Assembly: GCA_012455605.1 (NCBI GenBank)
Contig: GCA_012455605.1_3618.2
Length of the DNA: 46,310 nucleotides
Direction: 5' to 3' (one strand)
Source of the DNA: a phage
Below the pieces are notes generated by a model. That model did no database searches. It was not told the DNA's origin and was given only the letters and a program-made list of their open reading frames with translations. The position numbers were made by a program, and so were the translations under genes. Below are positions 29,998 through 46,241 of the stretch, one piece after another; positions within the stretch are counted from its first letter, which is position 1; each line of letters opens with the position of its first letter.

Positions 29998-30000
29998 TTA

Positions 30001-30447
30001 TCAGTCCTCGCATTTAACAAATTTTTCTACAGATCCACCAAGCACAGCTTGTTGTTTGATGGCACTTTCTTCATCATAGTGGATAGACTTATGTTCCGTA
30101 CCTCCAAACTTACCTGTGTGGAAGGTGTGCACCCAAATCTCTTTAGGAAGGGATTTATTCTCTTCTTCCACCAACTCCCACATTCCCCATAAGTGATCTG
30201 TGATATCTCTGATGAAATATCCCTCGCCGAGGTTTGTATTCACACTATAAGCTGATTCGTGATCTCCACAAATATAACGGAAGGCGGTGTACTCTTTCCC
30301 TGGCGTGAAGTGGGTATCCATTAGTATAGCTGTTAAAGAATTAGGGTCTCGAAATCCCAAAAACTTTAGTTTAACAATTTCGACGTTCACATTTGCAAGA
30401 TTATCCATGACGATCTCCCCTGTTTGGTTGGTGAGATAATCATACAT
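30001..30447 (-). CDS. Hypothetical protein
   Basis: 148 aa ORF; its stop is adjacent to the start of the Zn-ribbon gene; no family recognised. Confidence 0.5.
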   Translation of the reverse strand: MYDYLTNQTGEIVMDNLANVNVEIVKLKFLGFRDPNSLTAILMDTHFTPGKEYTAFRYICGDHESAYSVNTNLGEGYFIRDITDHLWGMWELVEEENKSLPKEIWVHTFHTGKFGGTEHKSIHYDEESAIKQQAVLGGSVEKFVKCED

Positions 30448-30545
30448 AGATCTGATGTTGGGGTCAAGCTTAATTTTAAACGATTTTGGGGAGGTATTTT
30501 GTTCAGGAGGGTAATCACATAAGGTAGGGCAATTTATGAAGGCAC

Positions 30546-30563
30546 AGGCCTCGTTTGAGGCCT
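30546..30563 (-). other. Intergenic stem-loop without U-tract
   Basis: AGGCCTC-gttt-GAGGCCT perfect 7-bp stem, 10 nt downstream of the stop of gene 30573-30953 on the minus strand. Confidence 0.4.
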
Positions 30564-30572
30564 TAAAACAGA

Positions 30573-30953
30573 TTATGACGCTTTGACGTAGCGCTCTGAC
30601 AAAGCTGGGAAGCCAAAAGCAGCACCTACACTACCGTACGCTATCCACCATTGAAGTTCATCGTGACACCATTTTCCGATCAGAAAGGTGCTTGGGTAGC
30701 GGGTCAGTATTTTGGCATAAGCTTTAGGGTCTGCATCTTCTGGGATAATGATGCTTGGAACATCTTTGTTGTGACCACAGCAGCAGTTTAGAGTTTTCAA
30801 TCCTGCTGCCCATAGACTCATAATAGGCTTAACCATGCACTTATCAAGGCACACACGTTTTTTGCCGTCACGGAGCTTTTTAGGCACATCAACGATAACA
30901 TTTGGATGCTTGGCACCTTTCACTTTCCAATTATAGGATTTACACTTGCACAT
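30573..30953 (-). CDS. Cys-rich putative zinc-binding protein
   Basis: 126 aa; MCKCKSY...CLDKC...NCCCGHN cysteine clusters; GGAG RBS 9 nt upstream of ATG. Confidence 0.5.
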   Translation of the reverse strand: MCKCKSYNWKVKGAKHPNVIVDVPKKLRDGKKRVCLDKCMVKPIMSLWAAGLKTLNCCCGHNKDVPSIIIPEDADPKAYAKILTRYPSTFLIGKWCHDELQWWIAYGSVGAAFGFPALSERYVKAS

Positions 30954-31080
30954 TTAATCAGTCTCCGTCTAGAAAGCTATGTAACTAAAAATGACGCACA
31001 AAACTACCTAGCAATGCAATCTTATACCTGCGGTGAGTTAAGTGCGCTGCAGGGGCTCCTGTTGCGTTTTAAGTCATATC

Positions 31081-31251
31081 TTACTTAAAGTCTTTATCAC
31101 CTGCCACGATTGCATGAATCCACTCATTGTGATGCTCAATAGCGGTGAGATGTAGCATGATGTAGTGATCGTCATTGCCAAACATGGTATGATAGGCTTT
31201 GGCAGCATTTTGATATAACTTCCACATCAGGTAATGATATCTTCGCCTCAT
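31081..31251 (-). CDS. Small His-rich protein (56 aa), absent from the ORF track
   Basis: Hand translation of the minus strand gives MRRRYHYLMWKLYQNAAKAYHTMFGNDDHYIMLHLTAIEHHNEWIHAIVAGDKDFK. ATG lies 5 nt after the stop of the HAD-like gene, GGAG 8 nt upstream; fills an otherwise ~300-bp gap. Confidence 0.35.
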   Translation of the reverse strand: MRRRYHYLMWKLYQNAAKAYHTMFGNDDHYIMLHLTAIEHHNEWIHAIVAGDKDFK

Positions 31252-31256
31252 GGCTC

Positions 31257-31721
31257 TTACTCCGGTTCAGGATCTGGGTAATCTTCAATAATAAAGGGCC
31301 ATCCGTTCCGCTTAGCCTCAGACTTATACTCGATCTCCTTCATTGCAAACTCTAACTGATTCTTAGCCGGAATACATGCCGGAGAATCATCAATCCAGAT
31401 ATCTGGGTAGATATCAAACTGCGCCAGATAGGCTGCCTTCTGAACACCACCAGTATAAAACACACCAACATTGAGCTCCTTGCGCCAATACTCGATGTCT
31501 ACATTGTCTTGAGTAATGAATCGGAAAGTCACAAGGTAGACTGTCCACCCCTCTTTCTTCAGATCCCTGATCAGGCGGGAGAAGATGAAAGGGCTCGCAT
31601 TAAACGTTCCATCAAAGTCAATGGCAATGATGTGCGTGCCGTGGCGAGTCTCATATGGATTGCTTGTGGTAAGATTGCTGTAGTTAAAAGGGACCTCTTC
31701 CCCGCAGTAGCTGTAGTCCAT
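31257..31721 (-). CDS. HAD-superfamily hydrolase (phosphatase/nucleotidase-like)
   Basis: Motif I IIAIDFDGT, Thr in VYLVTF, Lys in GGVQKAAY, motif IV IWIDDSP. Start set at ATG 31721 (track GTG at 31727 overlaps upstream stop). Confidence 0.6.
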   Translation of the reverse strand: MDYSYCGEEVPFNYSNLTTSNPYETRHGTHIIAIDFDGTFNASPFIFSRLIRDLKKEGWTVYLVTFRFITQDNVDIEYWRKELNVGVFYTGGVQKAAYLAQFDIYPDIWIDDSPACIPAKNQLEFAMKEIEYKSEAKRNGWPFIIEDYPDPEPE

Positions 31722-31723
31722 AT

Positions 31724-31999
31724 TCACACCTTCTCGTTGATAAATTTACGGGCGGTTTGGTGAGTTGTTTCTGCTGTCTTCAGAATAATATTAATTTTAT
31801 CGTCAAGATCATTCATCTCAGCAGTTAATTCAGGAATCTCTCCGGCATGCATAGTGAAATCATACATAGACATGCCCAGAATCTCATTGATGCGACGGTT
31901 GCATTCTGCAGCACGCTGGTTCATTTTCCAAGCTAACACCAAAGCCTCCTGCGTAGCCTCTAGTGCAAAATCTAATACGTCGGCCTCTTCTTTCGTCAT
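31724..31999 (-). CDS. Hypothetical protein
   Basis: 91 aa, AGGAG RBS 8 nt upstream of ATG; coupled to the HAD-like gene. Confidence 0.5.
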   Translation of the reverse strand: MTKEEADVLDFALEATQEALVLAWKMNQRAAECNRRINEILGMSMYDFTMHAGEIPELTAEMNDLDDKINIILKTAETTHQTARKFINEKV

Positions 32000-32054
32000 C
32001 TCAGTTTCTCCTGTTGTATTGTTGGTAGGTGTATGAATACCTTATATCTCACTT

Positions 32055-32621
32055 TTATTCAAACTGCAATAGCAAGTCCACCACCGCACTAGGCCTGTCA
32101 ACAAATTCCCCAGGCCCACATGCCCATAGAGGGTATCCATCAACATACCGCCATATCCAACCTGCAGTGTGAAGCTCAAGCAGGGCAGTGCCGTCCTTAC
32201 TGTCAACCACCCTTTCCCACAGTGTTGGGCAGCGAAGCTTGAGAATCGGGTCCCCGCCCTTATACCCATCCATGTAGATACCCATTGCAAAGTTCAGCAT
32301 CATCTTTTTGTGCACTGATCTCTTACTGAGGGTGCTCATCACTTCCTCTTTGTGAATGTTTGTAAGCTTCTCTTTGGCTACCCGCAGATCATTGCAACCA
32401 TTGTTCAGCAGATCTTCCAGACACTTGATCCGAAGGTCGTGAATGTCTTTGTCGTGTACAGTTGGCACGGGGTCGTAGCGGTATAGCACCGTTGATACAA
32501 GGTTGCTCGGGTGTGGGTCTGACAGCAACCCATAGCCCCAATACTCTTCTGTATCTGAAAGGACAAGACACCCAATGTCTCTGTCAAGCTTTCCTGTGTT
32601 GTAAGCCACATTGACCGCCAT
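32055..32621 (-). CDS. Hypothetical protein
   Basis: 188 aa ORF with GGAG RBS; no family recognised. Confidence 0.5.
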   Translation of the reverse strand: MAVNVAYNTGKLDRDIGCLVLSDTEEYWGYGLLSDPHPSNLVSTVLYRYDPVPTVHDKDIHDLRIKCLEDLLNNGCNDLRVAKEKLTNIHKEEVMSTLSKRSVHKKMMLNFAMGIYMDGYKGGDPILKLRCPTLWERVVDSKDGTALLELHTAGWIWRYVDGYPLWACGPGEFVDRPSAVVDLLLQFE

Positions 32622-32623
32622 GA

Positions 32624-32869
32624 CTATAGCTCCACTAGCAAAGTGCTTTCAAAGTGCCGTTCATGCAAACCGTTGTAAGGGACCACTTCCACAACGCCAT
32701 CACGGACATATGGGGCCATCATGGTGGTATAATCTCCAAACGGGTTGGTATTGTCACTAACCACAACCACCTTCTGCCCTTCCTTGGCAGAGTGCCAAAT
32801 AGATCTGCACTTCATCAGGTGTTCGAGAGCCCCAGGTAAAATTTTGTTACGTTCTTTACGGGTCTTCAT
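32624..32869 (-). CDS. Hypothetical protein
   Basis: 81 aa; start overlaps upstream stop (ATGA). Confidence 0.45.
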   Translation of the reverse strand: MKTRKERNKILPGALEHLMKCRSIWHSAKEGQKVVVVSDNTNPFGDYTTMMAPYVRDGVVEVVPYNGLHERHFESTLLVEL

Positions 32870-33315
32870 AACAGGTATAGCTCCTTATGAAAGTAGTCTT
32901 TTAATTTCTCACTGAGAAACTTCTTGATACCTTCCTCTAAAGTGTTTTCGATGTAGTCCAGCTTAACTGCTTCGATGGACATATCATAGATCGCCAGCTC
33001 TAAGCTGTCAAGTCCCATCATAGCATGAACCATAAGATTTTCATCTTCAGATACATTCAGGGGACTTCCTATAACATCCGTAGGGAGGATAGTTTCCCAA
33101 TTATTCTGGGGGGTAGTTCTCCCGCCATCCACTTTACGGCGCAGTTCGAAGGTGTTCTTAGTGTAGAACACTTCATAAGAAACGATACGACTATCGCTCT
33201 CATAATAAACGAAGTTCAGGTAGGAGCCTAGCCGCAGTCGGCAAACTTCTACCCCAAACCATTGTTTCTTATAAGAATTCAGGCTAATGCTGTCACATTC
33301 ACGTTTGCTCAACAC
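32866..33315 (-). CDS. Hypothetical protein
   Basis: 149 aa; GTG start 6 nt after AAGGAG. Confidence 0.45.
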   Translation of the reverse strand: MLSKRECDSISLNSYKKQWFGVEVCRLRLGSYLNFVYYESDSRIVSYEVFYTKNTFELRRKVDGGRTTPQNNWETILPTDVIGSPLNVSEDENLMVHAMMGLDSLELAIYDMSIEAVKLDYIENTLEEGIKKFLSEKLKDYFHKELYLL

Positions 33316-33330
33316 GGCTCTCTCCTTTTG

Positions 33331-33564
33331 TTAATCTTCGTAAATCAGGATTTCTGCTTTAGGTTTTCGTGCTTTCAGGTCCAGCTCTATCCAGTGCACC
33401 ATAGCTGTTTCAAGAAAAACAGCTTGGATGCATCCGTCCTCAGCGTGCCCCACCAACATAACAAGATCTTCACCTTCGTCATCTGCATCACGAATATACA
33501 GAATCTCTCCAGATTCAAAGTCTTTCACAACCTGATTGCTGGATAATTTACGAATTTTTGCCAT
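33331..33564 (-). CDS. Hypothetical protein
   Basis: 77 aa; ATG 1 nt after upstream stop; acidic. Confidence 0.45.
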   Translation of the reverse strand: MAKIRKLSSNQVVKDFESGEILYIRDADDEGEDLVMLVGHAEDGCIQAVFLETAMVHWIELDLKARKPKAEILIYED

Positions 33565-33565
33565 A

Positions 33566-33829
33566 TCAGAAACCCTCTAAAAAGCTCTTGTAGAAAATAA
33601 TTTCAGTGTCCACACCTGTCACGATCTTATCGTTTCGGATCTCATCTGTGAGGTAGGTGTCAAAACGCAGAACCTGTGTGGTGTTGTCACACATCCACTC
33701 AGCTGTGACCATTGCGAAAATCTTAGCATCTTCATTATCTGGTGTGAATGTTACCACCTCACCACACTTAAACTTTTCGATAGGTTGAGTGTTGGCTTTC
33801 GGTTCTGCGATAGTGATTTTTGTGGTCAT
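33566..33829 (-). CDS. Hypothetical protein
   Basis: 87 aa; TAATG overlap with upstream gene. Confidence 0.45.
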   Translation of the reverse strand: MTTKITIAEPKANTQPIEKFKCGEVVTFTPDNEDAKIFAMVTAEWMCDNTTQVLRFDTYLTDEIRNDKIVTGVDTEIIFYKSFLEGF

Positions 33830-34095
33830 TACTCTTCCTCCATAGTTTCACCAAATACTTCGATACGAGCATCGAGCTCGGTTGCTTTCAGCTCCCCAAC
33901 AAAATCTTTTAGTTCTTTCTCGTCCAGATCGTAAGCCCACACACAAGAAGAACATGCAGATTTCACAATCAGCAGCGTAGATATACGGCCTGACTCCGTG
34001 ATCATGCTCACAATGGTTCCTACAGGGAACGTGTTGATAGCTTTTTTAACTGGGCGTTCAGCTTTGATTACTACCTCTGTTGTCATAAATAACAT
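33829..34095 (-). CDS. Hypothetical protein
   Basis: 88 aa; alternative in-frame ATG at 34086 has better RBS spacing. Confidence 0.4.
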   Translation of the reverse strand: MLFMTTEVVIKAERPVKKAINTFPVGTIVSMITESGRISTLLIVKSACSSCVWAYDLDEKELKDFVGELKATELDARIEVFGETMEEE

Positions 34096-34101
34096 CCTCT
34101 C

Positions 34102-35562
34102 TTACTTAGCGTACTCGATTAATTCCACAGTTTTCCCAAAGCTCGGAATATAATTTTTATTATACCCTTCGGTGAGAACCCATAGAGTATCGTACTTTTT
34201 CCACTTGTTGTCAACAGCCTTTTGTTCAAAGTTATGCTCAAAGTATAGGTCGGTCAGGACGATGACATCTTTTGCATTCGGTATGTTAGCATCCAGATAC
34301 TCGAACACGCAAGCAGCTGTTGTGCCCCATGTTGAGTGGACCTCATAGTTAATCATCTTGTCTATGTTGCCGCGAGTGTATACTTTAACCTCTCCAACCT
34401 CAGTTGACCAACAGAACATTGTAACCTTAAACTCTTTATACAGATTGCACAATCCGGTGATTTCATTGAACATTTTCTTTAAAGTTCTTTGAGAGATCGA
34501 GCCAGAAACGTCTAAAGCCACCACAATATCTATAGTGTTTTCCGGATTACGACCAGGAACAATAACGTGCTGGTTCTTGTTTATAGCCCCAACTTTTCGC
34601 ATTGTGCTGGTCAAAGACCCAGATCGGCGACCAGGTTTTCTGTAGGTCAGTTCAGCCTTTCGTTTAGACAACATGCGTTGCTTAATGATGTCTATATAGT
34701 TGATTACAGGCTTACCTCTGTTCTTGACAAACTCACGCACCGCCTCAGGGCAACGGCCTCCGGACGCTTGCATTGCTGCCTCCAGCATATCACCAGAGTC
34801 CTGCATGGCCTGATCTTTATCAGATTGGCTGATTACAGGTTGTGGCTGATCATACCCCATAGCTTTTCCAAGATCATCACTAGTGCCACCGTTACCACTC
34901 ATGTGATCGTCGGTTTGTCGTTTATCTCCTTGAGAGTTCTTGCCTTTACCGTTCTTACTTTTACCGCTATTCTGATCTCTTTGCTTATCAAGAACCGCAT
35001 AGACGTTCTCAGCAATCCATCCATGGAACCTCATGTCACAGTAGCAACTAGCTAAGAATCCAAAAGGCTTACCTTTCACGAACGTAGTGCTTTTCCCCTT
35101 CGGGAAGAAAACACAAGGAGGCTTGCTAAAGTCAACCACAAGACCTGTGTTGATAACGTGATCACAAGCAATATTGAACAGTTCCGGCTCAAAGCTTTTA
35201 CCACGGACCAGGTGATCACAGATAATATGCCCCACCTCATGTGACAGAAGGAAGGCCACCTCTTTCACAGATTTTGGGGAATAGAAAACTTCAGCCATCT
35301 CAAACTGCTCGTCAGTTAGAGAAGCCTTAAGAATAGTCTTGCGTTCATCAGCCAATCCCATAATGAACTCAGGACTGTAATAAATGCGTTTATGGTCGGT
35401 TGCCATGGTGGAGCACCATGTGTGGTTTTCTACGAACTGCAACCCTGACAGTAGTGTGCCATAAAACGGCAGCTTTTCAAGGAGATACATACGTGCAGCC
35501 TGTAACATTCTCAGGGCATCATCTTTCTGTGAGGCAATGATTTCTGAACTTCTGCTATCCAT
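34102..35562 (-). CDS. VWA-domain protein with N-terminal HExxH metallopeptidase-like domain (DUF2201-type)
   Basis: HEVGH at 35227-35241 (minus); VWA MIDAS motif ALDVSGSIS at ~34501-34530, downstream Thr and VIVLTDLYFE. Central Gly/Ser/Lys/Asp-rich linker. Start set at ATG 35562 (GGAG 5 nt upstream); track TTG start at 35583 sits in a hairpin. Confidence 0.7.
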   Translation of the reverse strand: MDSRSSEIIASQKDDALRMLQAARMYLLEKLPFYGTLLSGLQFVENHTWCSTMATDHKRIYYSPEFIMGLADERKTILKASLTDEQFEMAEVFYSPKSVKEVAFLLSHEVGHIICDHLVRGKSFEPELFNIACDHVINTGLVVDFSKPPCVFFPKGKSTTFVKGKPFGFLASCYCDMRFHGWIAENVYAVLDKQRDQNSGKSKNGKGKNSQGDKRQTDDHMSGNGGTSDDLGKAMGYDQPQPVISQSDKDQAMQDSGDMLEAAMQASGGRCPEAVREFVKNRGKPVINYIDIIKQRMLSKRKAELTYRKPGRRSGSLTSTMRKVGAINKNQHVIVPGRNPENTIDIVVALDVSGSISQRTLKKMFNEITGLCNLYKEFKVTMFCWSTEVGEVKVYTRGNIDKMINYEVHSTWGTTAACVFEYLDANIPNAKDVIVLTDLYFEHNFEQKAVDNKWKKYDTLWVLTEGYNKNYIPSFGKTVELIEYAK

Positions 35563-35595
35563 TAAAACTCCAGAAGGGGCCAATGGCCCCTGTCA

Positions 35596-36636
35596 TTATT
35601 TAACGTGTTTGAAAATACCTGCCAACTCGGTCATTGTCATGCGGGTGGTCTTCATAAGATCTGTCATAGCTTTCTCCATAATTGGAGATACTACCATAAA
35701 GTTTCCTTTAGTGAAACCTTTATTCCAGTCGGTCACCAACAGTGGTTTAAGTCCAGATCCGAGACGTTCACCAGTTAAAGCACAGCATTTGCGAATATAC
35801 GAACTCTTAAATTGGCTGAACGACAGATCAACTTTCATACCTGCATCGTAGAACGTTTGACAATAGAAAGTGTAAGCCTTAGCAATCTCAACATCATCAG
35901 GCAGTGCAGGAACTTCTTCTGCAATCTCCTCTTCGACCTCCTGAGGCTCTTTTTCCTCTTCAGAGTTCTGTTCTTCAATTTCTTCTGTCACAGTCTCGTT
36001 TACGATGTCTGAAATGTGTTTGTTGGCTGCACGATCAGCCATGAAATTTTTAAAGTCCTGCATTGGTGACATATCTTCCTCCTCTTCGTCAAATAGTGCT
36101 AGTTTATCTTCCTCTGTCCCGTATTGCAAGATGAAGTCTTCAAAAGTATAATCACCTTTCAATTTCTCCATACGCTCTTCGCTCAGGTGGAGCATCATCT
36201 GCTGGACAATTTTTCTATCAGTTTTGTCTTTTATCAAGATTGCAGTCTTTTTATCTACCAGACAGTCCTTCAGAGCGTTGCACCTCAATCCCACCACACA
36301 ACAATTATCAATTGAGTAAGGACCTTCATCATCTATCCGCTCTAGGGAGGGGTAGAAAGGATTTCCCAATCCGTTTTCATCTGTGTGCATGTCAAAAGGT
36401 ATAAGGGTATAGTCGCATACTCCATCTCCTAAAAGTTTTTTACCAAATAGGAGGTATTCTTCCCATGACAGGTCGAACTCTATATCCCGTTTCCGTGCAT
36501 TATTCTGTTTGCGTCTATATTTTTTGAGCAGGCGCTCTAACTCTTCTGGTGTATAATATTTTTCAAGATTCATGAGTTGTCTCTCGTGCTCTGTAAGTGA
36601 AGAAATCGTATCAATTGTCTTAACAGATGTCAACAT
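35596..36636 (-). CDS. HNH-like domain protein with tandem duplicated domain and acidic linker
   Basis: First copy DIEFDLSWEEYLLFGKKLLGDGVCDYTLIPF...PSLERIDDEGPYSIDNCCVVGLRCNALK matches the phage HNH pattern (..F.L..EE...CxYxG...PSLDRIDN.KGY...N...CC..CN..K). Second, degenerate copy VDLSFSQF...KCCALTGERL...PLLVTDWNKGFTKGNFMVV. Glu-rich low-complexity segment between. First gene of the minus block. Confidence 0.5.
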   Translation of the reverse strand: MLTSVKTIDTISSLTEHERQLMNLEKYYTPEELERLLKKYRRKQNNARKRDIEFDLSWEEYLLFGKKLLGDGVCDYTLIPFDMHTDENGLGNPFYPSLERIDDEGPYSIDNCCVVGLRCNALKDCLVDKKTAILIKDKTDRKIVQQMMLHLSEERMEKLKGDYTFEDFILQYGTEEDKLALFDEEEEDMSPMQDFKNFMADRAANKHISDIVNETVTEEIEEQNSEEEKEPQEVEEEIAEEVPALPDDVEIAKAYTFYCQTFYDAGMKVDLSFSQFKSSYIRKCCALTGERLGSGLKPLLVTDWNKGFTKGNFMVVSPIMEKAMTDLMKTTRMTMTELAGIFKHVK

Positions 36637-36651
36637 CAAAAACGTGTTGAC
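36629..36651. promoter_or_regulatory. Inverted repeat in divergent control region
   Basis: GTCAACA-tcaaaaacg-TGTTGAC (7-bp arms, 9-nt spacer) covering the start codon of minus gene 35596-36636 and overlapping the -35 of the plus-strand promoter. Confidence 0.4.
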
Positions 36652-36675
36652 TTTACTCTAAATCTCCGATATAGT
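36647..36675 (+). promoter_or_regulatory. sigma70-like promoter TTGACT-17-TATAGT for the plus-strand operon
   Basis: -35 TTGACT 36647-36652, 17-nt spacer, -10 TATAGT 36670-36675; about 40 nt upstream of RBS/ATG of gene 36716. Confidence 0.6.
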
Positions 36676-36715
36676 GCACCCATTCGAAAGAAAACTAACA
36701 TAGGAGCACCCACTC

Positions 36716-37615
36716 ATGGCAAATCTTAACAGTTTTAGTACTCGGTGGAAACAGGACATAACAACCAATCTTTCAGCTGGGGACATCCTTTCTGCAATTT
36801 ACGAGGCTTTAGATGATAAAGCTACTTCAAAATCGGTTTGTACCAACCCGTTAATTCCTATGGTAATGAAGGTGATTGAGCGTAGGTTGGTATCTGGGTC
36901 TGATAAGTGGACATATTTAGATAATGAAGGACACACCTATTCCAATGGGTATGTCGATATAAAAGTAGAATACGCGGTATCATACCGCCGAAGCGGTTCT
37001 GTGACTTTCAACTTTTCTGGAGGTTTCAGATCTCTGGCAACTTCACCTTTTGTTTCCTCAGAAGAGAAGTTTGAACTTCCGTTCCTTTGGATGATGGCTA
37101 ACGCGACAGGAAAAACCCCAGTGAGCATTCGCGTAAAATACAACTACAACGGATCTAGTAAGATCTATGCCGAAAGTGTCTCAGCAAGTTTTTATTTTGT
37201 GATGGGCGATGGAATCCTCAAACATATAAAGATGTGCGATATGCATGATGTTATAAATGAAGTGACTGATAAGAATGTTCTAGTGAAAGACCTCAACAAT
37301 TTTTATACACCCGGAGACTATTACGTCAACCGTCCACTGTGCATCTTTAATGCTGCACACCCTCTAGGTGAGTATTTGATTGCCAATAGTGATATTGCCA
37401 ATAACCGCTTCGAGGTAGCAAGAGTACAGAATGAGGTGTTGACATCTTGCAAGAGCGGTGATAAGTTTACCGAAGAAGAGATGGGTGTTTTAGAGATGAT
37501 GGGATATAAGTGTAGCCTTTGGGTAGATGAGGTGTTTAATGACGGCATCTATGGACAGGATATTTACCCGTTAAAGAAGTATACTGATTCCAGTTTAATT
37601 TACGCGGAGATTTGA
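36716..37615 (+). CDS. Hypothetical protein
   Basis: 299 aa, AGGAG RBS 8 nt upstream; first gene of plus operon. Confidence 0.55.
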   Translation: MANLNSFSTRWKQDITTNLSAGDILSAIYEALDDKATSKSVCTNPLIPMVMKVIERRLVSGSDKWTYLDNEGHTYSNGYVDIKVEYAVSYRRSGSVTFNFSGGFRSLATSPFVSSEEKFELPFLWMMANATGKTPVSIRVKYNYNGSSKIYAESVSASFYFVMGDGILKHIKMCDMHDVINEVTDKNVLVKDLNNFYTPGDYYVNRPLCIFNAAHPLGEYLIANSDIANNRFEVARVQNEVLTSCKSGDKFTEEEMGVLEMMGYKCSLWVDEVFNDGIYGQDIYPLKKYTDSSLIYAEI

Positions 37616-37617
37616 CT

Positions 37618-37890
37618 ATGATGAAGTCATGTGGTAGTGTATACTATGTTGGTGAGAATGTTCAGGCAGATAGTGTGTGGAAATCCATTAAGTCCACCAC
37701 CGATGATGCCTTCTTGAGCGGGTTATGTTTCCCCAATCCCGGAGACATTCTCCCTCACCCTGGGGATTTTGTTGTCAACAAGACGGACGGTTATACCGTG
37801 TGCCTGATGGTTGAAAAAATCTTTTTAGACACTAGACACAATCACCGTCTTGTGTTAAAATTTCAAGAATGTAAAATGACAATTGCCTAA
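37618..37890 (+). CDS. Hypothetical protein
   Basis: Start moved from track TTG (37612) to ATG 37618 with GGAG 8 nt upstream. Confidence 0.45.
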   Translation: MMKSCGSVYYVGENVQADSVWKSIKSTTDDAFLSGLCFPNPGDILPHPGDFVVNKTDGYTVCLMVEKIFLDTRHNHRLVLKFQECKMTIA

Positions 37891-37903
37891 GGAGGCCTTA
37901 CCT

Positions 37904-38260
37904 ATGTCTAAAGTTGCTTATCGTGCAGCTATTTACTGCAATGAACACCCAATCAATAATGATGGTCACTGCCTTTTTAAAGAAAATCAGTTGGGCTGTA
38001 TTGTCCTACCTGATGAAGGGGAAGGTTATCTGATTGCATTGACAGGGTTTGAGCCTGAAGCTCTGGAAGCCAATCTGGACTACCTGGTAGAAGAGGGTGC
38101 TGCAGACCTGGTTGCTAATGGCCTCTCCGTAAGCCTTGACGAAGTGGAGCGCTTCATGGGCAATTACCGTGTAGTGCGGGAGTTTACTATCGAGGTGGAA
38201 ACTCCAGAGTGGGGTAGCACTGAAACTAATGCCGAAGAAAAAGAAGAGGAGGTAGAATAA
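37904..38260 (+). CDS. Hypothetical acidic protein
   Basis: Start moved from track TTG (37883) to ATG 37904 preceded by TAAGGAGG; Glu-rich C-terminus (EEKEEEVE). Confidence 0.5.
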   Translation: MSKVAYRAAIYCNEHPINNDGHCLFKENQLGCIVLPDEGEGYLIALTGFEPEALEANLDYLVEEGAADLVANGLSVSLDEVERFMGNYRVVREFTIEVETPEWGSTETNAEEKEEEVE

Positions 38261-38517
38261 TGAAAGTACAGATCTTGACTAATGCCGAGAAGATGTTTAT
38301 TGAAGATACACCTTTTGAAGCTGGTGAGCTACAGTTTGTTTATTTTGTTGACTTAGATAAGGTGTTTCCTGCACTGAATCTGGGTCTGGATGAAGTTCCT
38401 CATAAGGTTTTGTGCCAAGTTGTTCGTGCCTTAGCGGCAGAGGGGGAGTTCCACACCCTTCAAGATGTCCAGACCTACGGGTATCTTGAACTACAACGAG
38501 AAGAAGAGGTGGACTGA
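38260..38517 (+). CDS. Hypothetical protein
   Basis: 85 aa; TAATG overlap with upstream gene; GAGGAGG RBS. Confidence 0.5.
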   Translation: MKVQILTNAEKMFIEDTPFEAGELQFVYFVDLDKVFPALNLGLDEVPHKVLCQVVRALAAEGEFHTLQDVQTYGYLELQREEEVD

Positions 38518-38519
38518 TA

Positions 38520-38900
38520 ATGGCACGGTGGAAGACAACAGTTGACCTTCATGATCAGTGGCTAGGACGCATCGATGAAGATGGGAAACTGGTAGATTGG
38601 GACAACAAGCATGTTAGCGAGTTGGCAAGTATTGTGGCTGGCAAGTTACGCTCCAAGTTCCCTGAACAACTGAATCCTGATAGTTCAAAGTTCGATCCTG
38701 AGTTGGAGGATGTTGTATACTACTTCGACACGGTGGATGACTACGACGCGTGGCTTGCAGCACGGGAGCTTTACCCACAAGGCTCTGCTATGCGCCAGAT
38801 GGAAGAAGATTATCCTCCGTGTGAGCAATTCAATAGTGCAATGACTTGCCTCTATGATTGGGCAGATAAGAACCTTGTCTGGATTCGGACTGCATTTTAG
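38520..38900 (+). CDS. Hypothetical protein
   Basis: 126 aa; start 3 nt after upstream stop. Confidence 0.5.
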   Translation: MARWKTTVDLHDQWLGRIDEDGKLVDWDNKHVSELASIVAGKLRSKFPEQLNPDSSKFDPELEDVVYYFDTVDDYDAWLAARELYPQGSAMRQMEEDYPPCEQFNSAMTCLYDWADKNLVWIRTAF

Positions 38901-38944
38901 TGGGTAGGGATGGCGGCAAGGATGCTGCTTAAGGAGTAGTAGAG

Positions 38945-39214
38945 ATGTTATACCAGCAGTACGAACTTCGTGCAGAAAAAGAATTAAATTTTGACAAAGA
39001 TATCCACAGATATTATTATGGGAAAGTTAGAGGGCAATCAAGAAAGTGTACTCCAACACTCTTTTATGCCAGCAGACGACTAGCTCCAGAAGAGGCAACA
39101 GCAGAAAGGGTTGCATATGGCTGGAGAGTTGCGTATGATATTGACAGATCCGATGTGATGTCTGTTTTGGAAAACTTTGAAAACACTTACACACAAGTAG
39201 AGGACTTTTACTAA
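38945..39214 (+). CDS. Hypothetical protein
   Basis: 89 aa; AAGGAG RBS; stop overlaps start of ATPase gene (TAATG). Confidence 0.5.
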   Translation: MLYQQYELRAEKELNFDKDIHRYYYGKVRGQSRKCTPTLFYASRRLAPEEATAERVAYGWRVAYDIDRSDVMSVLENFENTYTQVEDFY

Positions 39215-40398
39215 TGTCAAGAAACGTATTCGAAAGTGGTCAAATCACTGTCCGCGAGTTGCCAGCTATTATTCAATTTGCCCAGCGTCATAACCGATCT
39301 GTCCTGATTTTAGGACCGATGGGTGTGGGGAAGAGTCAGGTGATGAAGCAGATTGCTGATAATATGTTCGGTGAGCGAGATGACAACCTGGTTGACGTGC
39401 GGCTGTCAGATAAAGATCCTGCTGACCTATCTGGACTACCTATCCCTGTAGAGGCAGATGGAACTACACGCACAGTGTTTGCAATTCCAGAATTTTGGCC
39501 TGCAGACTCGGACTGGAGCGGAATTATCTTTCTGGATGAGCTTACTCATGCAGATAACTACCTGCAGAAGGTTGCAATGCAAATTATGCTCGACCACAAG
39601 TGCGGCACCTATGCATTTCCTAAGGGCTCTGTTTTTGTAGCTGCAGGTAACCGTGCTACAGATGGTGCTGTTCTTTCAGCGCTCGAAGCTCCTCTGGCTA
39701 ACCGCTTTATCATTGTAGAAGTTACAAGCAATGCAGAGGTATTTATTGAGGACTACGCATTCCTTAATGGTGTGCATTCCTCTGTAATTGGATATCTGAA
39801 AAGAGTTCCATCAGCTATCGATAATTATGAGGCTATGGCTGAGATTAATTGTCCGTCTTTTGCCACACCGCGATCTTGGGTTGCTGCATCTGACATCCTG
39901 CACGATTTTGACAGCGGTATTATTTCTGACGCTATGGCTCGTGTTCTTCTGCAAGGTGCTATTGGTCACACTGCAGCGGTAGAAATCTGGACCTACCACA
40001 CCAAGAAACGAAACTTGCCAGAAATCGGTCGGATTATGGCAGGGGGTTGCAAAGAATATGTAGGTCCTAAGCAGCCAGATATCTTGTGGATTCTTGGGTC
40101 TGAAGGTTGTATTGCTATTCGGAATATGATGGAAAATGCAAGTGTCTCAGACGAAGATCTTGTTAGCTGCGTGGCAAACTTCCTCGATTTCCTTTGGGAA
40201 AATTTCAAAGATGAAAACCGAGACTTTGTATTCTCAGTCTTTATGGCGATGATGAAGCCCAACGCCCTGGGAAATGCCTTACTTATTGGTAAAGGCCGGG
40301 ACAAGATCGTTGCTCAGCTGATCAAAGCATATCCAAACCTGATGAAGATTGTAAAAGAGTTTGGTGAAGAGTTTAGCGCCATTTTAGCTAAAGCTTGA
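39214..40398 (+). CDS. AAA+ ATPase, MoxR/AAA_5-like
   Basis: Walker A LILGPMGVGKS (39313-39336), Walker B IIFLDELTHA, sensor region VFVAAGNRATDG, and ALEAPLANRF matching the AAA_5 C-terminal signature. Confidence 0.7.
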   Translation: MSRNVFESGQITVRELPAIIQFAQRHNRSVLILGPMGVGKSQVMKQIADNMFGERDDNLVDVRLSDKDPADLSGLPIPVEADGTTRTVFAIPEFWPADSDWSGIIFLDELTHADNYLQKVAMQIMLDHKCGTYAFPKGSVFVAAGNRATDGAVLSALEAPLANRFIIVEVTSNAEVFIEDYAFLNGVHSSVIGYLKRVPSAIDNYEAMAEINCPSFATPRSWVAASDILHDFDSGIISDAMARVLLQGAIGHTAAVEIWTYHTKKRNLPEIGRIMAGGCKEYVGPKQPDILWILGSEGCIAIRNMMENASVSDEDLVSCVANFLDFLWENFKDENRDFVFSVFMAMMKPNALGNALLIGKGRDKIVAQLIKAYPNLMKIVKEFGEEFSAILAKA

Positions 40399-40407
40399 GG
40401 AGGTTGT

Positions 40408-40788
40408 ATGGCTAAAGTAGGTAAGCGGGGAAACTACCTGGTGGTATTGACCGAGGAGCCGGAGAAAGAGTACGAATGCAGCTCCACTTGCGTGATCGAT
40501 ATCCGAGAAAAAGATGTAGATGAAATCTGGTTTAAAATATTGGACGCTTGCGACAGCAGTGACTATTTCTTCATCTATGTCAACGATAAAGCGGGGTTCT
40601 TCCATGATGATGGGGAGTTACCGTATGAAATCTATGAACTTGTAGAGGCTTGCCATCGTGGAGATGCGGAGTTGTTTGGTCTACGGCTGAAAAGTGGTAA
40701 ATTCTTCTATCAAGATGAATGCATAAATCTTCACAACTTCGTAGAGGGGACTTGCAACGATGGAGAGATTTTGGCACACTACGATTAA
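40408..40788 (+). CDS. Hypothetical acidic protein
   Basis: 126 aa, GAGGAGG RBS; followed by a terminator. Confidence 0.5.
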   Translation: MAKVGKRGNYLVVLTEEPEKEYECSSTCVIDIREKDVDEIWFKILDACDSSDYFFIYVNDKAGFFHDDGELPYEIYELVEACHRGDAELFGLRLKSGKFFYQDECINLHNFVEGTCNDGEILAHYD

Positions 40789-40802
40789 TTTCTAAGACAC
40801 AC

Positions 40803-40828
40803 CCCGCTTCGGCGGGGATTTTCTATTT
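40803..40828 (+). terminator. Intrinsic terminator (UUCG tetraloop hairpin)
   Basis: CCCCGC-TTCG-GCGGGG followed by ATTTTCTATTT; same 16-mer as at 14565. Confidence 0.75.
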
Positions 40829-40837
40829 GGAGCTATT

Positions 40838-41338
40838 GTGAAAATTAAGATCTTTGCTATTATTTTGAGCGCATTTTTATCGCTGCCTGTTGTTGCAGCA
40901 CCAAAACAAAAAGTATATCACACCTGCAAGCCGTCGGATACTAAGGAAAACATTCTAGCATGCAATATCTACAGGGAGGCTAGAGGGGATGGCACGATGG
41001 GTATGCTGGCATCAGGGTTTGCCACACTAAACAGGAAATCTCACCCCAAATACCCGGACACCATAAGAAAGATTGTCTACCAACCTAACCAGTTTTCGTG
41101 GACAAACCACGGCAAAACTTTTAAGGTGACAGAAAAAGATTCATGGGATCACGCTAAAAGTCTTGCAAAGATGCTTCTAAAGGTCTATAATAATAACCAT
41201 GTTGCATACATGGCTATGGATATAACAGGTGGAGCAACACACTACCATACAACAAAAGTACGACCGAAATGGGCAAAAAAGATGCAGAGGACAGCTCAAT
41301 TCGGGAGTCATATCTACTACAAGGAGCGCAATAAATGA
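40838..41338 (+). CDS. Secreted cell-wall hydrolase, SleB/CwlJ (Hydrolase_2) family; candidate endolysin
   Basis: GTG start 5 nt after GGAG. N-terminal signal-peptide-like MKIKIFAIILSAFLSLPVVAAP. Core NIYREARGDG...ATLNRKSHPKYPDTIRKIVYQPNQFSW...GGATHYHT...FGSHIYY matches the SleB-type pattern. Confidence 0.7.
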   Translation: MKIKIFAIILSAFLSLPVVAAPKQKVYHTCKPSDTKENILACNIYREARGDGTMGMLASGFATLNRKSHPKYPDTIRKIVYQPNQFSWTNHGKTFKVTEKDSWDHAKSLAKMLLKVYNNNHVAYMAMDITGGATHYHTTKVRPKWAKKMQRTAQFGSHIYYKERNK

Positions 41339-43317
41339 TTGTAAACAGCAATGAAACTAAAGCGGTGCTAACTGGGAATATGGAGGTAACCAGGGGATCA
41401 ATTTCCCTGAACAAAGAGACTTTTGGACTAATCATTAAAGGGATTTATGAAGATAAGGTGCTGGCAAGCTGCCGTGAACCAATCTTCAATGCTGTGGACT
41501 CTCATGTTGAGTCTGGACGGGGTGATGTACCGATCATCATTCACTCTCCTACAGATCTTGAGCCCTATTTCTTTGTGCAGGATGTTGGCCTCGGTATGTC
41601 AGAAGAGATGGTCCGCAACACTTTCATGAACTTGGGTGAATCCACCAAGCGCAACAGTAATGCCTTGGTAGGCAACAAAGGTGTTGGTTCAAAGGCCCCG
41701 TTCAGCATGGTAGACACTTTCGATGTAATCAGTGTGCACAACGGTGTGGAAAGCACATACCTATTGTTCTTGGACCAGGGTATCCCAAATGTCACCAAGA
41801 TCCGTGAGCGGAAGACTGAAGAGCACAATGGGGTAAAAGTTCAGTTTCATGTTAAGAAAGAGCATGTTCTGAAATATCGCACCGCCATTGCATCATGTTT
41901 GCGCTATGCAAAATTTCCGTTCACTGTCACCGATCCGATGACGAGCAAGATGCTGGAGGGAGACAAAGTAGAGGCGCAGTATTATTATGAAAAAGATGGT
42001 TGGAAGATGACCATCCTGAAGGGCTATACTAGCTCTGACGAGAGTCGTGTGGTAATGGGTCACCAACCTTACCGTTCTAAGTTCCTGGAAACACTAACAG
42101 ATTATCCTGCAATTTGTGTAGAGATCCCTATCGGAGATTGCAATATTAACCCAGGGCGTGAATGGACCATAGAAGGTCACGACGATGGTGGATTCCAAGA
42201 GCGTTTGGAAGCTTTTGTCAAAGAAGGCATTCGCCTTCGTGGAGCAGAAGTTGTTGCAGAACTGGAGACAGCAAAAACATCCTCAGAAGCACGCGAGATG
42301 ATGAAGAACAGTGGAGTGTTCGGGCACATTTTCGGTAAGAATTTTATGTATGACCGCTGGGAAGAAACAGGGCTAGGGAATTTGGGGGACTGCGAGATCT
42401 TCGCTGGCGGCTTAAATAAAGGCCGCATAGGTTACGCCTGCTACGGAAAGGTAGAATTCTTACGGGGAGTTTATTTAGTATTTAACGACGGAGACGGCAA
42501 ATATAACCGGAATAAGTGTAACTACTTAAGCGAGATCACCGGACGCAACGTTTTCTATTGCCGTAACACGGATCTGGTGGAAGAGTTTAAAGAAGCGGCA
42601 CACCACCCGTTCTTTGCAGATACGGTCAAATTGTTATCAGAGCTCCCTCGCCGACCTGCGAAGAAAGGTGAAACAAAAACTCATTACGAGCCAGGTTATT
42701 GGGTTAAAAAGCTTGAGAAGGATGGTTACTTCCGTCGTGAACGTATTACTAAGGCAGAGTTCAAGAAGATTAAGCACTGCATTCCTTATGAGGGTGATAT
42801 CCAACGTGGAAGTTGTTGGCTGGGACAGCTGAGTAACATCTACCAGCAAAATTATGACCGTGTGCGTGCGGCACTCCAGATTCCTGAAGGGGAAGACCTG
42901 TACCTGGTATCAGAATCCCGTCTGCTTTGGACTAATCCGGATTGCCAGTATGTTACAGAGAAAAATGTGGAACATTTGTTGAAAGAGGACGCCTGGAAAT
43001 TCTTACTGACTCGCGCAGCAAATGAAACTTCATATGACAGCCTGTATAGACAATTAGGGAAAATTATCCCCATGCAGGATTTTGGAAATTATCGGCCACA
43101 TTTCCACAAGTGGGAAGGTAACACCGCGTGGAAGCACAGTGAGCTAAATCATCGTGCCAAAATCTTAATCGCCAACCGGGTTAAGTGCGGAAAGGCCTAT
43201 ATTGCAAGATTGGAAAAGAAATATCCACTTTTGAAGCATGTGGGCTTGAAATATTGGGACACTCCTGCTATGATTGAATACCGTGAACTGATCGATACAA
43301 AGAATAACATCAAATAA
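41335..43317 (+). CDS. GHKL-family (Bergerat fold) ATPase, function unknown
   Basis: N-box EPIFNAVD (41476-41499), G1 box DVGLG (41581-41595), G2 box GNKGVG (41671-41688) in correct order and spacing within the first ~120 aa; 660 aa with unassigned C-terminal ~500 aa. No TOPRIM-like motif recognised. Confidence 0.65.
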   Translation: MIVNSNETKAVLTGNMEVTRGSISLNKETFGLIIKGIYEDKVLASCREPIFNAVDSHVESGRGDVPIIIHSPTDLEPYFFVQDVGLGMSEEMVRNTFMNLGESTKRNSNALVGNKGVGSKAPFSMVDTFDVISVHNGVESTYLLFLDQGIPNVTKIRERKTEEHNGVKVQFHVKKEHVLKYRTAIASCLRYAKFPFTVTDPMTSKMLEGDKVEAQYYYEKDGWKMTILKGYTSSDESRVVMGHQPYRSKFLETLTDYPAICVEIPIGDCNINPGREWTIEGHDDGGFQERLEAFVKEGIRLRGAEVVAELETAKTSSEAREMMKNSGVFGHIFGKNFMYDRWEETGLGNLGDCEIFAGGLNKGRIGYACYGKVEFLRGVYLVFNDGDGKYNRNKCNYLSEITGRNVFYCRNTDLVEEFKEAAHHPFFADTVKLLSELPRRPAKKGETKTHYEPGYWVKKLEKDGYFRRERITKAEFKKIKHCIPYEGDIQRGSCWLGQLSNIYQQNYDRVRAALQIPEGEDLYLVSESRLLWTNPDCQYVTEKNVEHLLKEDAWKFLLTRAANETSYDSLYRQLGKIIPMQDFGNYRPHFHKWEGNTAWKHSELNHRAKILIANRVKCGKAYIARLEKKYPLLKHVGLKYWDTPAMIEYRELIDTKNNIK

Positions 43318-43327
43318 GGAGACCAAG

Positions 43328-44533
43328 ATGATTTTCATCTACGAACATTTCAAAACCCGTAAAGAAGCACGAGACCGCCGTGCAGAACTTGAGAAGAAGG
43401 GTTTCACATGTGCCATTGAGAAAGGCGACACAACCTGGACACTGGCAGTGGGTGCCCCAGAGTTGTTCGATCCTGACCGTGACAGCGTCTGCTACACCCG
43501 TGAGGATTTTGAAACCCGCGAAGAGGCCCGTTTATTCCGCTATGGATTGGAAGATAATGGTAAGTACGCCATGATCTTAGACTTAGGCGAAGGTTCCGTT
43601 AAACGTTGGGGCGTGGTATACCCACTGTGTGTTGTTCACGGTGTGGGGTTCACTGGGGTGGCAATCAAGTCAGAAGAACCTTTAGTAGAAGTCAAAGATC
43701 CGGTGCTGGAGGTGGTTAGCAGTGTGTCTCAGCAACAAACTCGAAGCATCGAGCCTTTGGTAGTTATTTGTGGGGAACTCCTCCAGATCACCTGCAACGA
43801 AGGCATTTTTGAAATTCGCCGCAGCGAAAGTGAGGAAGTTTACCAGAAAGTCTTCGACCATATCTCTGTTCAGGAATATGACGAGGCAATTGGTGAAATC
43901 CTTGTCTGGCTGGAACGCAAGAATGAGTTCACCACACTTGCAGACAACCTGATCATGAAAGATGGTAAGCTCTACTACTACGGTGTAGAGATGCGATCCA
44001 CCATTGCAAAGAAAATTGAGAAAGATTATGCAGACGGAACGCTGGATGACCGCTATGTGAAATTCCTCGTTCGCCTGCTACGCAATCCTTCTGCAAAATC
44101 TGTAAACATGCTCTACGATTTTATGCAGGCCAATGATATTCAGATTGCAGAAGATGGTCGAATCATTTGCTACAAAGGGGTTCAGTTTAACGGCAGCAAG
44201 TGGGTAGATTGGCACAGTGGTAAAGTCCCACAATACCAAGGTGCTTTTGTATCCATGCCTCGTAACTTTGTAGAGGATGATCCTGAAGCTGCGTGCTCCT
44301 ATGGCTTACACTGCGCCAGCAAAGAGTATGCAAAGAGCTACGGCACTGTAATGACTGTCATGGTTGACCCTGCAGATGTAGTTAGTGTGCCATACCAACA
44401 CAATAGCGCTAAGTGCCGTGCATGCCGCTATGAGATTGTGGTAGCTCCGGAAGCACGCAAAGATGGAGACCCTATTGAATATGTAGTTGATCGTGACGGT
44501 AACACTATCGACATTCTTTACGAGGAGGCGTAA
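43328..44533 (+). CDS. Hypothetical protein with tandem N-terminal small domains and Cys/His-rich C-terminal domain
   Basis: N-terminal repeat HFKTRKEARDRRAELEKKGF / DFETREEARLFRYGLEDNGK; C-terminal SYGLHCASKEY...HNSAKCRACRYEIV. Stop overlaps start of helicase (TAATG). Confidence 0.5.
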   Translation: MIFIYEHFKTRKEARDRRAELEKKGFTCAIEKGDTTWTLAVGAPELFDPDRDSVCYTREDFETREEARLFRYGLEDNGKYAMILDLGEGSVKRWGVVYPLCVVHGVGFTGVAIKSEEPLVEVKDPVLEVVSSVSQQQTRSIEPLVVICGELLQITCNEGIFEIRRSESEEVYQKVFDHISVQEYDEAIGEILVWLERKNEFTTLADNLIMKDGKLYYYGVEMRSTIAKKIEKDYADGTLDDRYVKFLVRLLRNPSAKSVNMLYDFMQANDIQIAEDGRIICYKGVQFNGSKWVDWHSGKVPQYQGAFVSMPRNFVEDDPEAACSYGLHCASKEYAKSYGTVMTVMVDPADVVSVPYQHNSAKCRACRYEIVVAPEARKDGDPIEYVVDRDGNTIDILYEEA

Positions 44534-45903
44534 TGGAAAAAGGGCAGTATGATGTAGGCACAGATGCTGCCCTCGTTGCAATCATGAGCGGTGAGAATGT
44601 CTTCGTTTCAGGACCTGCAGGTTGTGGGAAGACGTATCTCATCAACATGATCCAGTCAATGTATGGAGACTCTTGCATAACGGTTGCCCCGACAGGGGTA
44701 GCCGCCTTAAACGTTAATGGAGCAACAGCACACCGAACCTTCGATCTTGCAGCAGGTGTGAGCATGGAGTCGGACTGGACTGCAATAAGGGCAAAAACAG
44801 CAAAGCCTTTGAAAAGTAAGGCATTTACCATCCTGATTATCGATGAAATCTCTATGATCCGTGCTGATAAGTTTATAGAGATGGATAGGAAACTCCGCTT
44901 CCTTCGAAAAAATGACAAACCTTTCGGAGGCATACAGGTCATATTGTTTGGCGACTTTTACCAGGCACCTCCTGTTGTCTCTTCTATGGAGAAGGAGGCC
45001 TACTTCAACTTCTACCATACGGACCTGTGTTGCTATACCGAATCTTGGAAAGAGCTTGACCTCCACAACATAGCCCTAGTAGATCAGTTCCGACAGGAGT
45101 CTATTCGATTTGCCACAATGCTCAACTGTGTTCGTGAGGGTCGTCGCATAAAAGAGGTTGTAGCAGAACTTAATGCTCGCTGTTACAAAGGCGGTGTACC
45201 AACAGATGCTCTCACAATTTGCGCCACTAACAAACAAGCAGAGGAAGTGAATAGAAGGTTCTATGATGCCATTAACGCCCCAGAGAAGGTATACACTGGG
45301 GAAATGAAAGGTAAGTTTCCCTCCACCCTGCCAGTTGAGCAGGAGATGAAGTTGAAAATTGGCATGAAGGTTATGATAACCGCCAACGATGTTGACCCGA
45401 CGCACAAAGTACCTTATTATGTTAACGGAACACGTGCCACGATTGTTAAATTTAAGAACAAGGCGGTGGTGGTGGAGCTTGAAGATGGAACACAGGTTGA
45501 CATAGAGCAAAGGTTGTGGGAGAATAACGAATATAAGCCATCTCAGAGATACAACATTGCAGAAAGGAAGATGGAGAAGTTTATAGAGAGGGTAGTGATC
45601 GGGTCATACAAGCAACTCCCTCTGAAATCTGGGTACGCTGTAACATCTCATAAAAGTCAAGGACTTACGTTAGATTGCTACAACCTAGACCTTGGAAAGA
45701 ACGGAGCTTTCTCTCCTGGAATGACGTATGTCGCTTTGAGTCGGGTTAAGACAATACAAGGAATAAACTTGTTGCGTCCACTAAGAGAAGTTGACATTAT
45801 TGTTGACCCGCGAGTCGTAGAGTTTTACAATACAACATTCCCTGACTTAGACAAAATTGTCAGGAAAGATTTTGAAACCAGAGCCGAAGAGGGGGACGTA
45901 TGA
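44533..45903 (+). CDS. SF1B DNA helicase, Dda/Pif1/RecD-like
   Basis: Walker A VSGPAGCGKTYL (44611-44634), motif Ia VAPTGVAALNV, Walker B ILIIDEISMI, C-terminal YAVTSHKSQGLTLD and TYVALSRVK; 456 aa, similar in size to T4 Dda. Confidence 0.8.
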   Translation: MEKGQYDVGTDAALVAIMSGENVFVSGPAGCGKTYLINMIQSMYGDSCITVAPTGVAALNVNGATAHRTFDLAAGVSMESDWTAIRAKTAKPLKSKAFTILIIDEISMIRADKFIEMDRKLRFLRKNDKPFGGIQVILFGDFYQAPPVVSSMEKEAYFNFYHTDLCCYTESWKELDLHNIALVDQFRQESIRFATMLNCVREGRRIKEVVAELNARCYKGGVPTDALTICATNKQAEEVNRRFYDAINAPEKVYTGEMKGKFPSTLPVEQEMKLKIGMKVMITANDVDPTHKVPYYVNGTRATIVKFKNKAVVVELEDGTQVDIEQRLWENNEYKPSQRYNIAERKMEKFIERVVIGSYKQLPLKSGYAVTSHKSQGLTLDCYNLDLGKNGAFSPGMTYVALSRVKTIQGINLLRPLREVDIIVDPRVVEFYNTTFPDLDKIVRKDFETRAEEGDV

Positions 45904-46241
45904 GTTTGTGGAGAAATATAGTTAACTACGTGTGTGGCAATCCAACTCCTGAAGGGAAGGATGTTGTGATTCACGATTTTACTAAAAGATCTCGTGAAAA
46001 AGATCTACTGCTAACAAAGGTGACTGATAAAGATCCTGTAGTAGGGGACTGGGCAGGTTTTGCGTTTACATCGGACAAATACACCTTTAACAAAGGTGAC
46101 TACCTTGTTGTGGATTTTAACGAAGACATTGAGGGTGCTGAACCTTACTATCAAACCCTTATTGTTGCAGGGTGTGTTAATCTCTCTGCAGGCATGCACA
46201 GTTTGATTCTTTTTGAGCTTGACTCTGAAGACCTTGAGTAG
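45900..46241 (+). CDS. Hypothetical protein
   Basis: 113 aa, ATGA overlap with helicase stop; followed by a GC hairpin. Confidence 0.5.
   Translation: MSLWRNIVNYVCGNPTPEGKDVVIHDFTKRSREKDLLLTKVTDKDPVVGDWAGFAFTSDKYTFNKGDYLVVDFNEDIEGAEPYYQTLIVAGCVNLSAGMHSLILFELDSEDLE

Follow-up and report, generated by a model that had tools for sequence, protein, structure and literature searches.

The inverted repeat GTCAACA/TGTTGAC, which lies between two divergently oriented gene groups of this phage, is a real feature, but it belongs to an ordinary and already known pair of back-to-back early promoters, both of which were predicted in the 2013 paper on phage rV5. It is highly likely that the 142-bp spacer at positions 36574-36715 of the window (the whole analysed stretch of 46,310 nucleotides) contains two separate promoters of the host type (sigma-70), arranged back to back, and that the repeat is a by-product of this geometry.

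The original prediction had placed a divergent control region with a promoter close to the consensus at this position. This part was borne out, the promoter being of the sigma-70 type, and agrees with the published rV5 prediction P010. The tempting idea of an operator, or of a hairpin over a start codon, is better read as two ordinary promoters together with a mis-called start. The significance of the locus is small beyond annotation. In practical terms, the Srd-like gene, for which three different start codons are in use in GenBank records, receives its correct start (ATG 36573, 325 aa). Moreover, the comparative evidence indicates that the published predictions P010 and P011 are under selection across the genus.

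Phage identity and gene layout

The 3 kb around the repeat are 95-97% identical to approximately 120 rV5-like phage genomes of the genus Vequintavirus, and the gene order in the window agrees with that of rV5. Judged by these similarities, the window is from an rV5-like Vequintavirus, i.e. a myophage of E. coli. Among the matching records, sixteen (MG0656xx) bear the name 'Campylobacter phage' and list C. jejuni as host. They show about 96% identity to the E. coli rV5-like phages over the region, and their host assignment looks doubtful.

The position of the repeat is the divergent junction of the homologues of rV5 gene 11 and gene 10 (Table 1). Over the junction stretch, rV5 and the window are 98% identical. 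The gp010 protein encoded on the right side gave tblastn matches confined to the genus Vequintavirus (118 records) and no Pfam match. It carries the old label 'putative alpha 1-3 fucosyltransferase', and the similarity behind this label is very weak: the PDB sequence search returned human FUT9 with E = 0.0015 over residues 65-201. For the Srd-like protein on the left side, neither Pfam nor the PDB sequence search gave a match. Its PHROG matches are phrog_3118 and, more weakly, Srd / sigma-70 decoy families. The product names given to this protein in the records clash with each other ('HNH endonuclease', 'anti-sigma factor' and 'anti-termination').

The gene following the Srd-like gene in the minus-strand cassette (ATG 35562) encodes a DUF2201 metallopeptidase/VWA protein. 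The minus strand carries a G+C-rich hairpin, AGGGGCC-ATT-GGCCCCT (35575-35591), which follows the Srd-like stop codon (35598-35596) and precedes the Shine-Dalgarno sequence and ATG of this next gene. It has no clean U-run; a role in RNA stability or as an intercistronic attenuator is possible. In the part of the window from 30000 to 46310, promoter-like consensus sites (43, compared to 27.8 +/- 5.7 in shuffles) and terminator-like ones (21, compared to 12.8 +/- 3.9) are both in excess, many of them inside genes.

Table 1. Features at and around the junction of the gene 10 and gene 11 homologues (window coordinates)
Feature	Position	Strand	Remarks
Tail-gene block	up to ~30.2 kb	+	rV5-like layout
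Minus-strand cassette	~30.0-36.6 kb	-	rV5 genes 11-26
Srd-like gene, rV5 gp011 homologue	35596..36573	-	phrog_3118; 325 aa; start ATG 36573
Non-coding 'extension' of the longest ORF	36574..36639	-	contains P11 and the false ATG 36636-36634; based on codon-position counts and alignment
Purine-rich Shine-Dalgarno-like GAGAGA	36580..36585	-	6 nt before ATG 36573; AAGAGA/AAGGGA in relatives; RBS annotated in phage LL12
Predicted P11 start	36597..36598	-	7-8 nt past the -10 box; placed from the hexamer position
P11 -10 hexamer TACGAT	36605..36610	-	often TAAGAT in relatives; position 3 is C or A; positions 1, 2, 5, 6 invariant
P11 extended -10 TG (TGnTACGAT)	36612..36613	-	invariant
P11 -35 hexamer TTGACA	36628..36633	-	invariant in all 16 relatives; NC_011041 'Sigma70-type promoter; P11'; rV5 Table S4
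Left repeat arm GTCAACA	36629..36635		minus strand reads TGTTGAC: the P11 -35 box without its last base (36628) plus the preceding TG
Right repeat arm TGTTGAC	36645..36651		TG plus the P10 -35 box without its last base
P10 -35 hexamer TTGACT	36647..36652	+	5/6 consensus; invariant in all 16 relatives; P010 in rV5 Table S4
P10 -10 hexamer TATAGT	36670..36675	+	5/6 consensus; 17-nt spacer; 1/6 columns varies (TACAGT, phage Aya)
Predicted P10 start (A)	36682	+	7 nt past the -10 box; placed from the usual -10 to +1 distance
Shine-Dalgarno AGGAG of the gene 10 homologue	36702..36706	+	9 nt before ATG 36716; LL12 RBS annotated at equivalent position
rV5 gp010 homologue	36716..37615	+	phrog_12338; 299 aa; first gene of the plus operon
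Plus-strand operon	from 36716	+	gene 10 homologue, then MoxR-like ATPase and cell-wall hydrolase, then rIIA/rIIB

Two predicted promoters with mirror-image -35 boxes

The plus-strand promoter TTGACT-17-TATAGT is present at 36647-36675, as had been stated, and matches the consensus at 10 of 12 positions; it is called P10 here. The right arm of the repeat overlaps its -35 box, also in agreement with the original prediction. What had been overlooked is a promoter on the minus strand (P11, corresponding to P011 of rV5). The promoter scan found it as TTGACA (36633-36628), a 17-nt spacer ending with TGA, and TACGAT (36610-36605), again with 10 of 12 consensus positions. Since P11 has its -35 box in the left repeat arm, the repeat is explained by two mirror-image -35 boxes. 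They are located on opposite strands with 13 bp between them and share no hexamers. Read on one strand, two facing TGTTGAC-type -35 regions appear as GTCAACA...TGTTGAC.

Both elements look as expected for their type. P10 possesses the two sigma-70 hexamers with a 17-nt spacer in all relatives, and the hexamers are conserved while the spacer drifts. P11 has the features of an extended -10 sigma-70 promoter, namely TTGACA, a 17-nt spacer, the TGn and the bases A2 and T6 of the -10 box, and it is located upstream of a start codon with a ribosome-binding site. As a pair they constitute two complete promoters, predicted to fire outward, at a point where the gene layout switches strands, which is the arrangement of a back-to-back divergent pair.

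This pair is not new. In the rV5 paper (Kropinski et al. 2013, Virol J 10:76, PMC3606486), bidirectional promoters are reported for the junction of genes 10 and 11. Table S4 of that paper gives P010 as CAAAAACGTG-TTGACTTTACTCTAAATCTCCGATATAGT-GCACCCA, which is identical to positions 36637-36682 of the window, and P011 as TTGACATCTGTTGAGACAAT-TGATACGAT, from which the window differs by one spacer base. The RefSeq record of rV5, NC_011041, has the P11 promoter annotated at exactly equivalent coordinates. P010 and P011 of rV5 are the same locus, and the accessible part of the paper (PMC3606486) does not mention the inverted repeat that is formed by the -35 boxes.

A perfect 7-bp repeat with 9 nt separating its arms is indeed present, but by itself it is within chance expectation. 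A perfect 7-bp inverted repeat with a loop of 3-20 nt occurred in 11% of the dinucleotide shuffles of the 142-bp spacer, and the whole window contains 74 such repeats, compared to 58 +/- 8 in shuffles. It is the promoter pair, not the repeat, that exceeds chance: TTGACW-N17-TAYRRT was found three times in the window against an expectation of 0.16, and two of these three matches are located here, on opposite strands. The part of the repeat outside the TTGAC cores can be attributed to a common local form of the -35 region, since TG precedes TTGAC in 11 of the 33 rV5 promoters predicted in Table S4 (PMC3606486) and since TGTTGAC is over-represented in the window (22 observed, 9.2 expected). The scan also proposed an intrinsic terminator at the repeat (8 pairs, 3 of them G-C, tail TTTACTCT). 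With its weak tail, and in a position that does not follow the end of any plus-strand gene, this candidate was rejected.

Directly after entry of the DNA, both promoters would be recognised by the RNA polymerase holoenzyme of E. coli (sigma-70), and transcription would proceed outward. P10, pointing to the right, would drive the plus operon from the gene 10 homologue through the genes for the MoxR-like ATPase and the cell-wall hydrolase up to rIIA/rIIB; P11, pointing to the left, would drive the minus cassette beginning with the Srd-like gene. About 84 bp separate the two predicted starts (plus strand, near 36682; minus strand, near 36598), which would result in leaders of about 34 and 24 nt, respectively. 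Relative to these starts, the repeat would occupy -31 to -53 of P10 and -31 to -54 of P11. The two promoters might also influence each other via the shared upstream DNA or via supercoiling. A literature search for transcription-start mapping or RNA-seq of any Vequintavirus returned none; the sole RNA-seq paper that names the Vequintavirus group deals with a T5-like phage.

Translation start of the Srd-like gene

The repeat had been described as overlapping the ATG of the first minus-strand gene. However, the ATG at 36636-36634 is merely the start of the longest mechanical ORF (347 aa from TTG 36639 or ATG 36636), while the real start is ATG 36573. In the long ORF, the match to the PHROG profile of phrog_3118 starts with M23. 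Most records have the start annotated at the equivalent of 36573; two others (slur16 and rV5_ev147) use the long form with the equivalent of 36636, and rV5 itself uses the equivalent of 36531. The upstream ATG is replaced by AGG or AGA in 8 of the 16 relatives. The 66-nt extension has 28 variable columns out of 66 (10/11/7 by codon position) and thus no third-position bias, i.e. it evolves like non-coding DNA. The corresponding figures are 27 of 76 columns (9/9/9) for the remaining spacer and 72 of 374 columns (16/5/51) for the coding sequence below 36573. Finally, in homologues with approximately 40% identity from the genera Seunavirus, Mydovirus and Avunavirus, the alignment to the short form starts at its residue 1-2. 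The extension is free of stop codons in 16 of 16 relatives, which is weak evidence for coding, as it comprises 22 codons in closely related genomes. Profile, annotations, loss of the upstream ATG, codon-position pattern and distant homologues therefore all place the start at ATG 36573. In consequence, the intergenic spacer measures 142 bp (36574-36715) and not 80 bp as previously stated, and P11 lies inside the false extension.

The corrected start also affects the idea of translational control by an RNA hairpin that forms in the minus-strand leader and occludes a start codon at 36636. If transcribed, a 41-nt stretch would fold with -8.6 kcal/mol on either strand (z = -2.7 for the plus and -1.5 for the minus strand), which would fit such a hairpin. 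However, the ATG that is supposed to be occluded is not a functional start, and the repeat constitutes the -35 region of P11. Since it lies upstream of both predicted transcription starts, it would be contained in neither mRNA. The longer minus-strand leader, the folding of which had been suggested as a check, folds no better than shuffles (z = -0.07), and an Rfam scan of 36300-37000 at E <= 1 gave no matching family. We regard translational control by this hairpin as barely credible, and with the geometry of the predicted starts a hairpin in the leader is very unlikely.

Conservation of the promoters and of the repeat

For the comparison within the genus, positions 36540-36730 were aligned with 15 relatives of 83-99% identity, and the column counts are given over 16 sequences in total. 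The promoter core was taken as the 26 positions of the four hexamers and the TG. Only 2 of the 26 core columns are variable, compared to 23 of 32 columns in the two 17-nt spacers (Fisher p = 5e-7), and the lengths of the spacers are constant. Taken separately, P10 has 1 variable column among its 12 hexamer columns and 13 among its 17 spacer columns. In P11, 10 of the 17 spacer columns vary, while the -35 box, the extended -10 TG and positions 1, 2, 5 and 6 of the -10 box are invariant. Conserved hexamers next to drifting spacers are the signature of two working promoters.

One could nevertheless assume that the repeat arose by chance, that P10 alone is functional and that the minus cassette is transcribed from elsewhere. 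The frequency of 7-bp repeats in shuffled spacers would be in line with this, as would the -10 box of P11, which agrees with the consensus in only 4 of 6 positions. However, the pattern of invariant and variable columns in P11 just described argues against it, and so does the presence of a promoter at a similar distance before the Srd-like start in three other genera (see below). In addition, the scan revealed no other candidate promoter ahead of the cassette's first gene. We consider this reading highly improbable.

The pairing of the repeat arms was scored over 14 distinct sequences. Pairs 1-5, which are the TTGAC cores, are invariant. At pair 6, 12 sequences have C-G and phage Aya has T-A, and the pair is broken in L006; 8 of the 14 sequences have a broken pair 7. 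One relative (L005/L025) contains one extra A between the arms. Outside the promoter cores, these sequences show no selection for dyad symmetry. More divergent relatives were sought for an analysis of covariation. By tblastn, the gene 10 protein was found only within the genus, and IMG/VR and a metagenome scan yielded the same few sequences.

These data also bear on the proposed operator. In this case, a dimeric protein of the phage or the host would bind GTCAACA-N9-TGTTGAC, block both -35 boxes and thus shut off both early units. The repeat does cover both -35 boxes, so that binding of a single dimer might in principle be sufficient to repress the two promoters. Moreover, pair 6 is altered on both sides in Aya (GTCAAT/ATTGAC), so that a 6-bp repeat is kept, as selection for pairing would give, and the authors of the rV5 paper speculated about a switch from early to late transcription involving gp11 (PMC3606486). 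However, the double change in Aya is a single event, and the observed pairing score was equalled by 61 of 500 shuffles. The invariant part of the repeat consists of the TTGAC cores only, which the promoters need anyway. Changes in spacing are rarely tolerated by dimer operators, and the spacing of the arms is not fixed here. The arms are 16 bp apart from centre to centre. With this distance of about 1.5 helical turns, the half-sites lie on opposite faces of the DNA.

With respect to recurrence, no second copy of GTCAAC-N5-15-GTTGAC was found in the whole 138-kb genome of rV5 (1 occurrence), and GTCAA-N7-19-TTGAC occurs a single time in the window, which is the number expected by chance, so that the dyad has no further copy in either sequence; recurrence is not required of an operator with a single site, though. 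Other genera of the Vequintavirinae retain the promoter of the Srd-like gene but lack the repeat. An informal check by eye for FNR- or CRP-like half-sites in 36620-36660 revealed none. Symmetry beyond the promoter elements, a fixed distance between half-sites and recurrence of the motif, by which the operator of a dimeric repressor might be recognised, were all not found. With conservation of TTGAC only, a variable arm spacing and a single genomic copy, the operator has no positive support from these comparisons, and we consider it very unlikely.

A related possibility is that the mirror-image -35 boxes as such are a selected device, which might act through a single dimeric factor that shuts off both early units, or through mutually exclusive or cooperative binding of polymerase at P10 and P11. 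If this were true, expression of the Srd-like cassette would be coupled to that of the operon on the rIIA/rIIB side by polymerase binding at the two promoters, and the double change in Aya would be a true compensatory event. We hold this to be very doubtful.

Next to the promoter cores, there is a further conserved segment. In the discriminator and 5' leader of P10 (36676-36701, plus strand; GCACCCATTCGAAAGAAAACTAACAT), 4 of 26 columns are variable, compared to about half of the other non-core spacer columns, and GTGCACCCATTC in this leader is invariant even in the relative with 83% identity. The segment could act as a signal in initial transcription or in translation, or it could bind a factor just past the start.

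Corresponding junctions in other genera

A divergent unit headed by the Srd-like gene is also present in Seunavirus, Mydovirus and Avunavirus, where the gene on the opposite side is a different one (annotated as thymidylate kinase). A strong promoter, TTGACA-17(16)-GATAAT/GATACT, is located 60-70 nt before the Srd-like start codon, while no comparable inverted repeat was found at the junctions of these three genera. Since the promoter of the Srd-like gene is kept and the repeat is absent, the conserved element is the promoter, and the repeat is a genus-specific consequence of the position of P10.

The sequences from these genera (L019-L024) share the block AATCAAG(T/G)(G/A)TTGACA ... GATAAT ... 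AAGAACGGG-N-CCCA(A)GGAG upstream of the Srd-like genes, which comprises the strong promoter and a leader with a small GGG/CCC hairpin beside the Shine-Dalgarno sequence. The neighbouring DUF2201/VWA genes of these genera carry the RefSeq name 'HNH endonuclease'.

Within rV5 itself, the other divergent junction, between genes 81 and 82 (L017, 16730-16744; 66730-66744 in the rV5 record), also displays two -35-like hexamers that are back to back, with only 3 bp between them (TTTCAA-GTG-TTGACA). The rightward hexamer has no convincing -10 box, and the candidate CAGGAT resembles the ribosome-binding site of gene 82.

Comparison with known systems

Strong promoters with -35 regions of the TGTTGAC type are well known from lambda PL and PR as well as from trp and tac. 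P10 and P11 have the TGTTGAC before the last -35 base in common with them, which is a resemblance in sequence only.

Symmetric bidirectional promoters are another arrangement in which symmetry and divergent transcription go together. Their -10 elements are said to coincide on opposite strands, with starts about 18 bp apart and one polymerase bound at a time. At the locus presented here, the -10 boxes (36605-36610 and 36670-36675) are about 60 bp apart and do not coincide, and a promoter of this kind was therefore rejected. As far as their accessible text goes, the papers on these promoters attribute divergent transcription to sequence symmetry in promoter elements (bioRxiv 10.1101/2020.01.31.928960; PMC12825309). 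In P10 and P11, the symmetry resides in the -35 boxes instead, and the promoters are separate.

The pair rather resembles the back-to-back divergent promoters that are common in E. coli. Such bacterial pairs are treated in PMC4469952. As in these pairs, two complete and non-overlapping sigma-70 promoters share their upstream DNA, with predicted starts about 84 bp apart, and a coupling of P10 and P11 by negative supercoiling or by shared upstream contacts is possible in the same way. Unlike in the bacterial pairs, no regulator site is evident between P10 and P11, and the context is that of early transcription of a phage.
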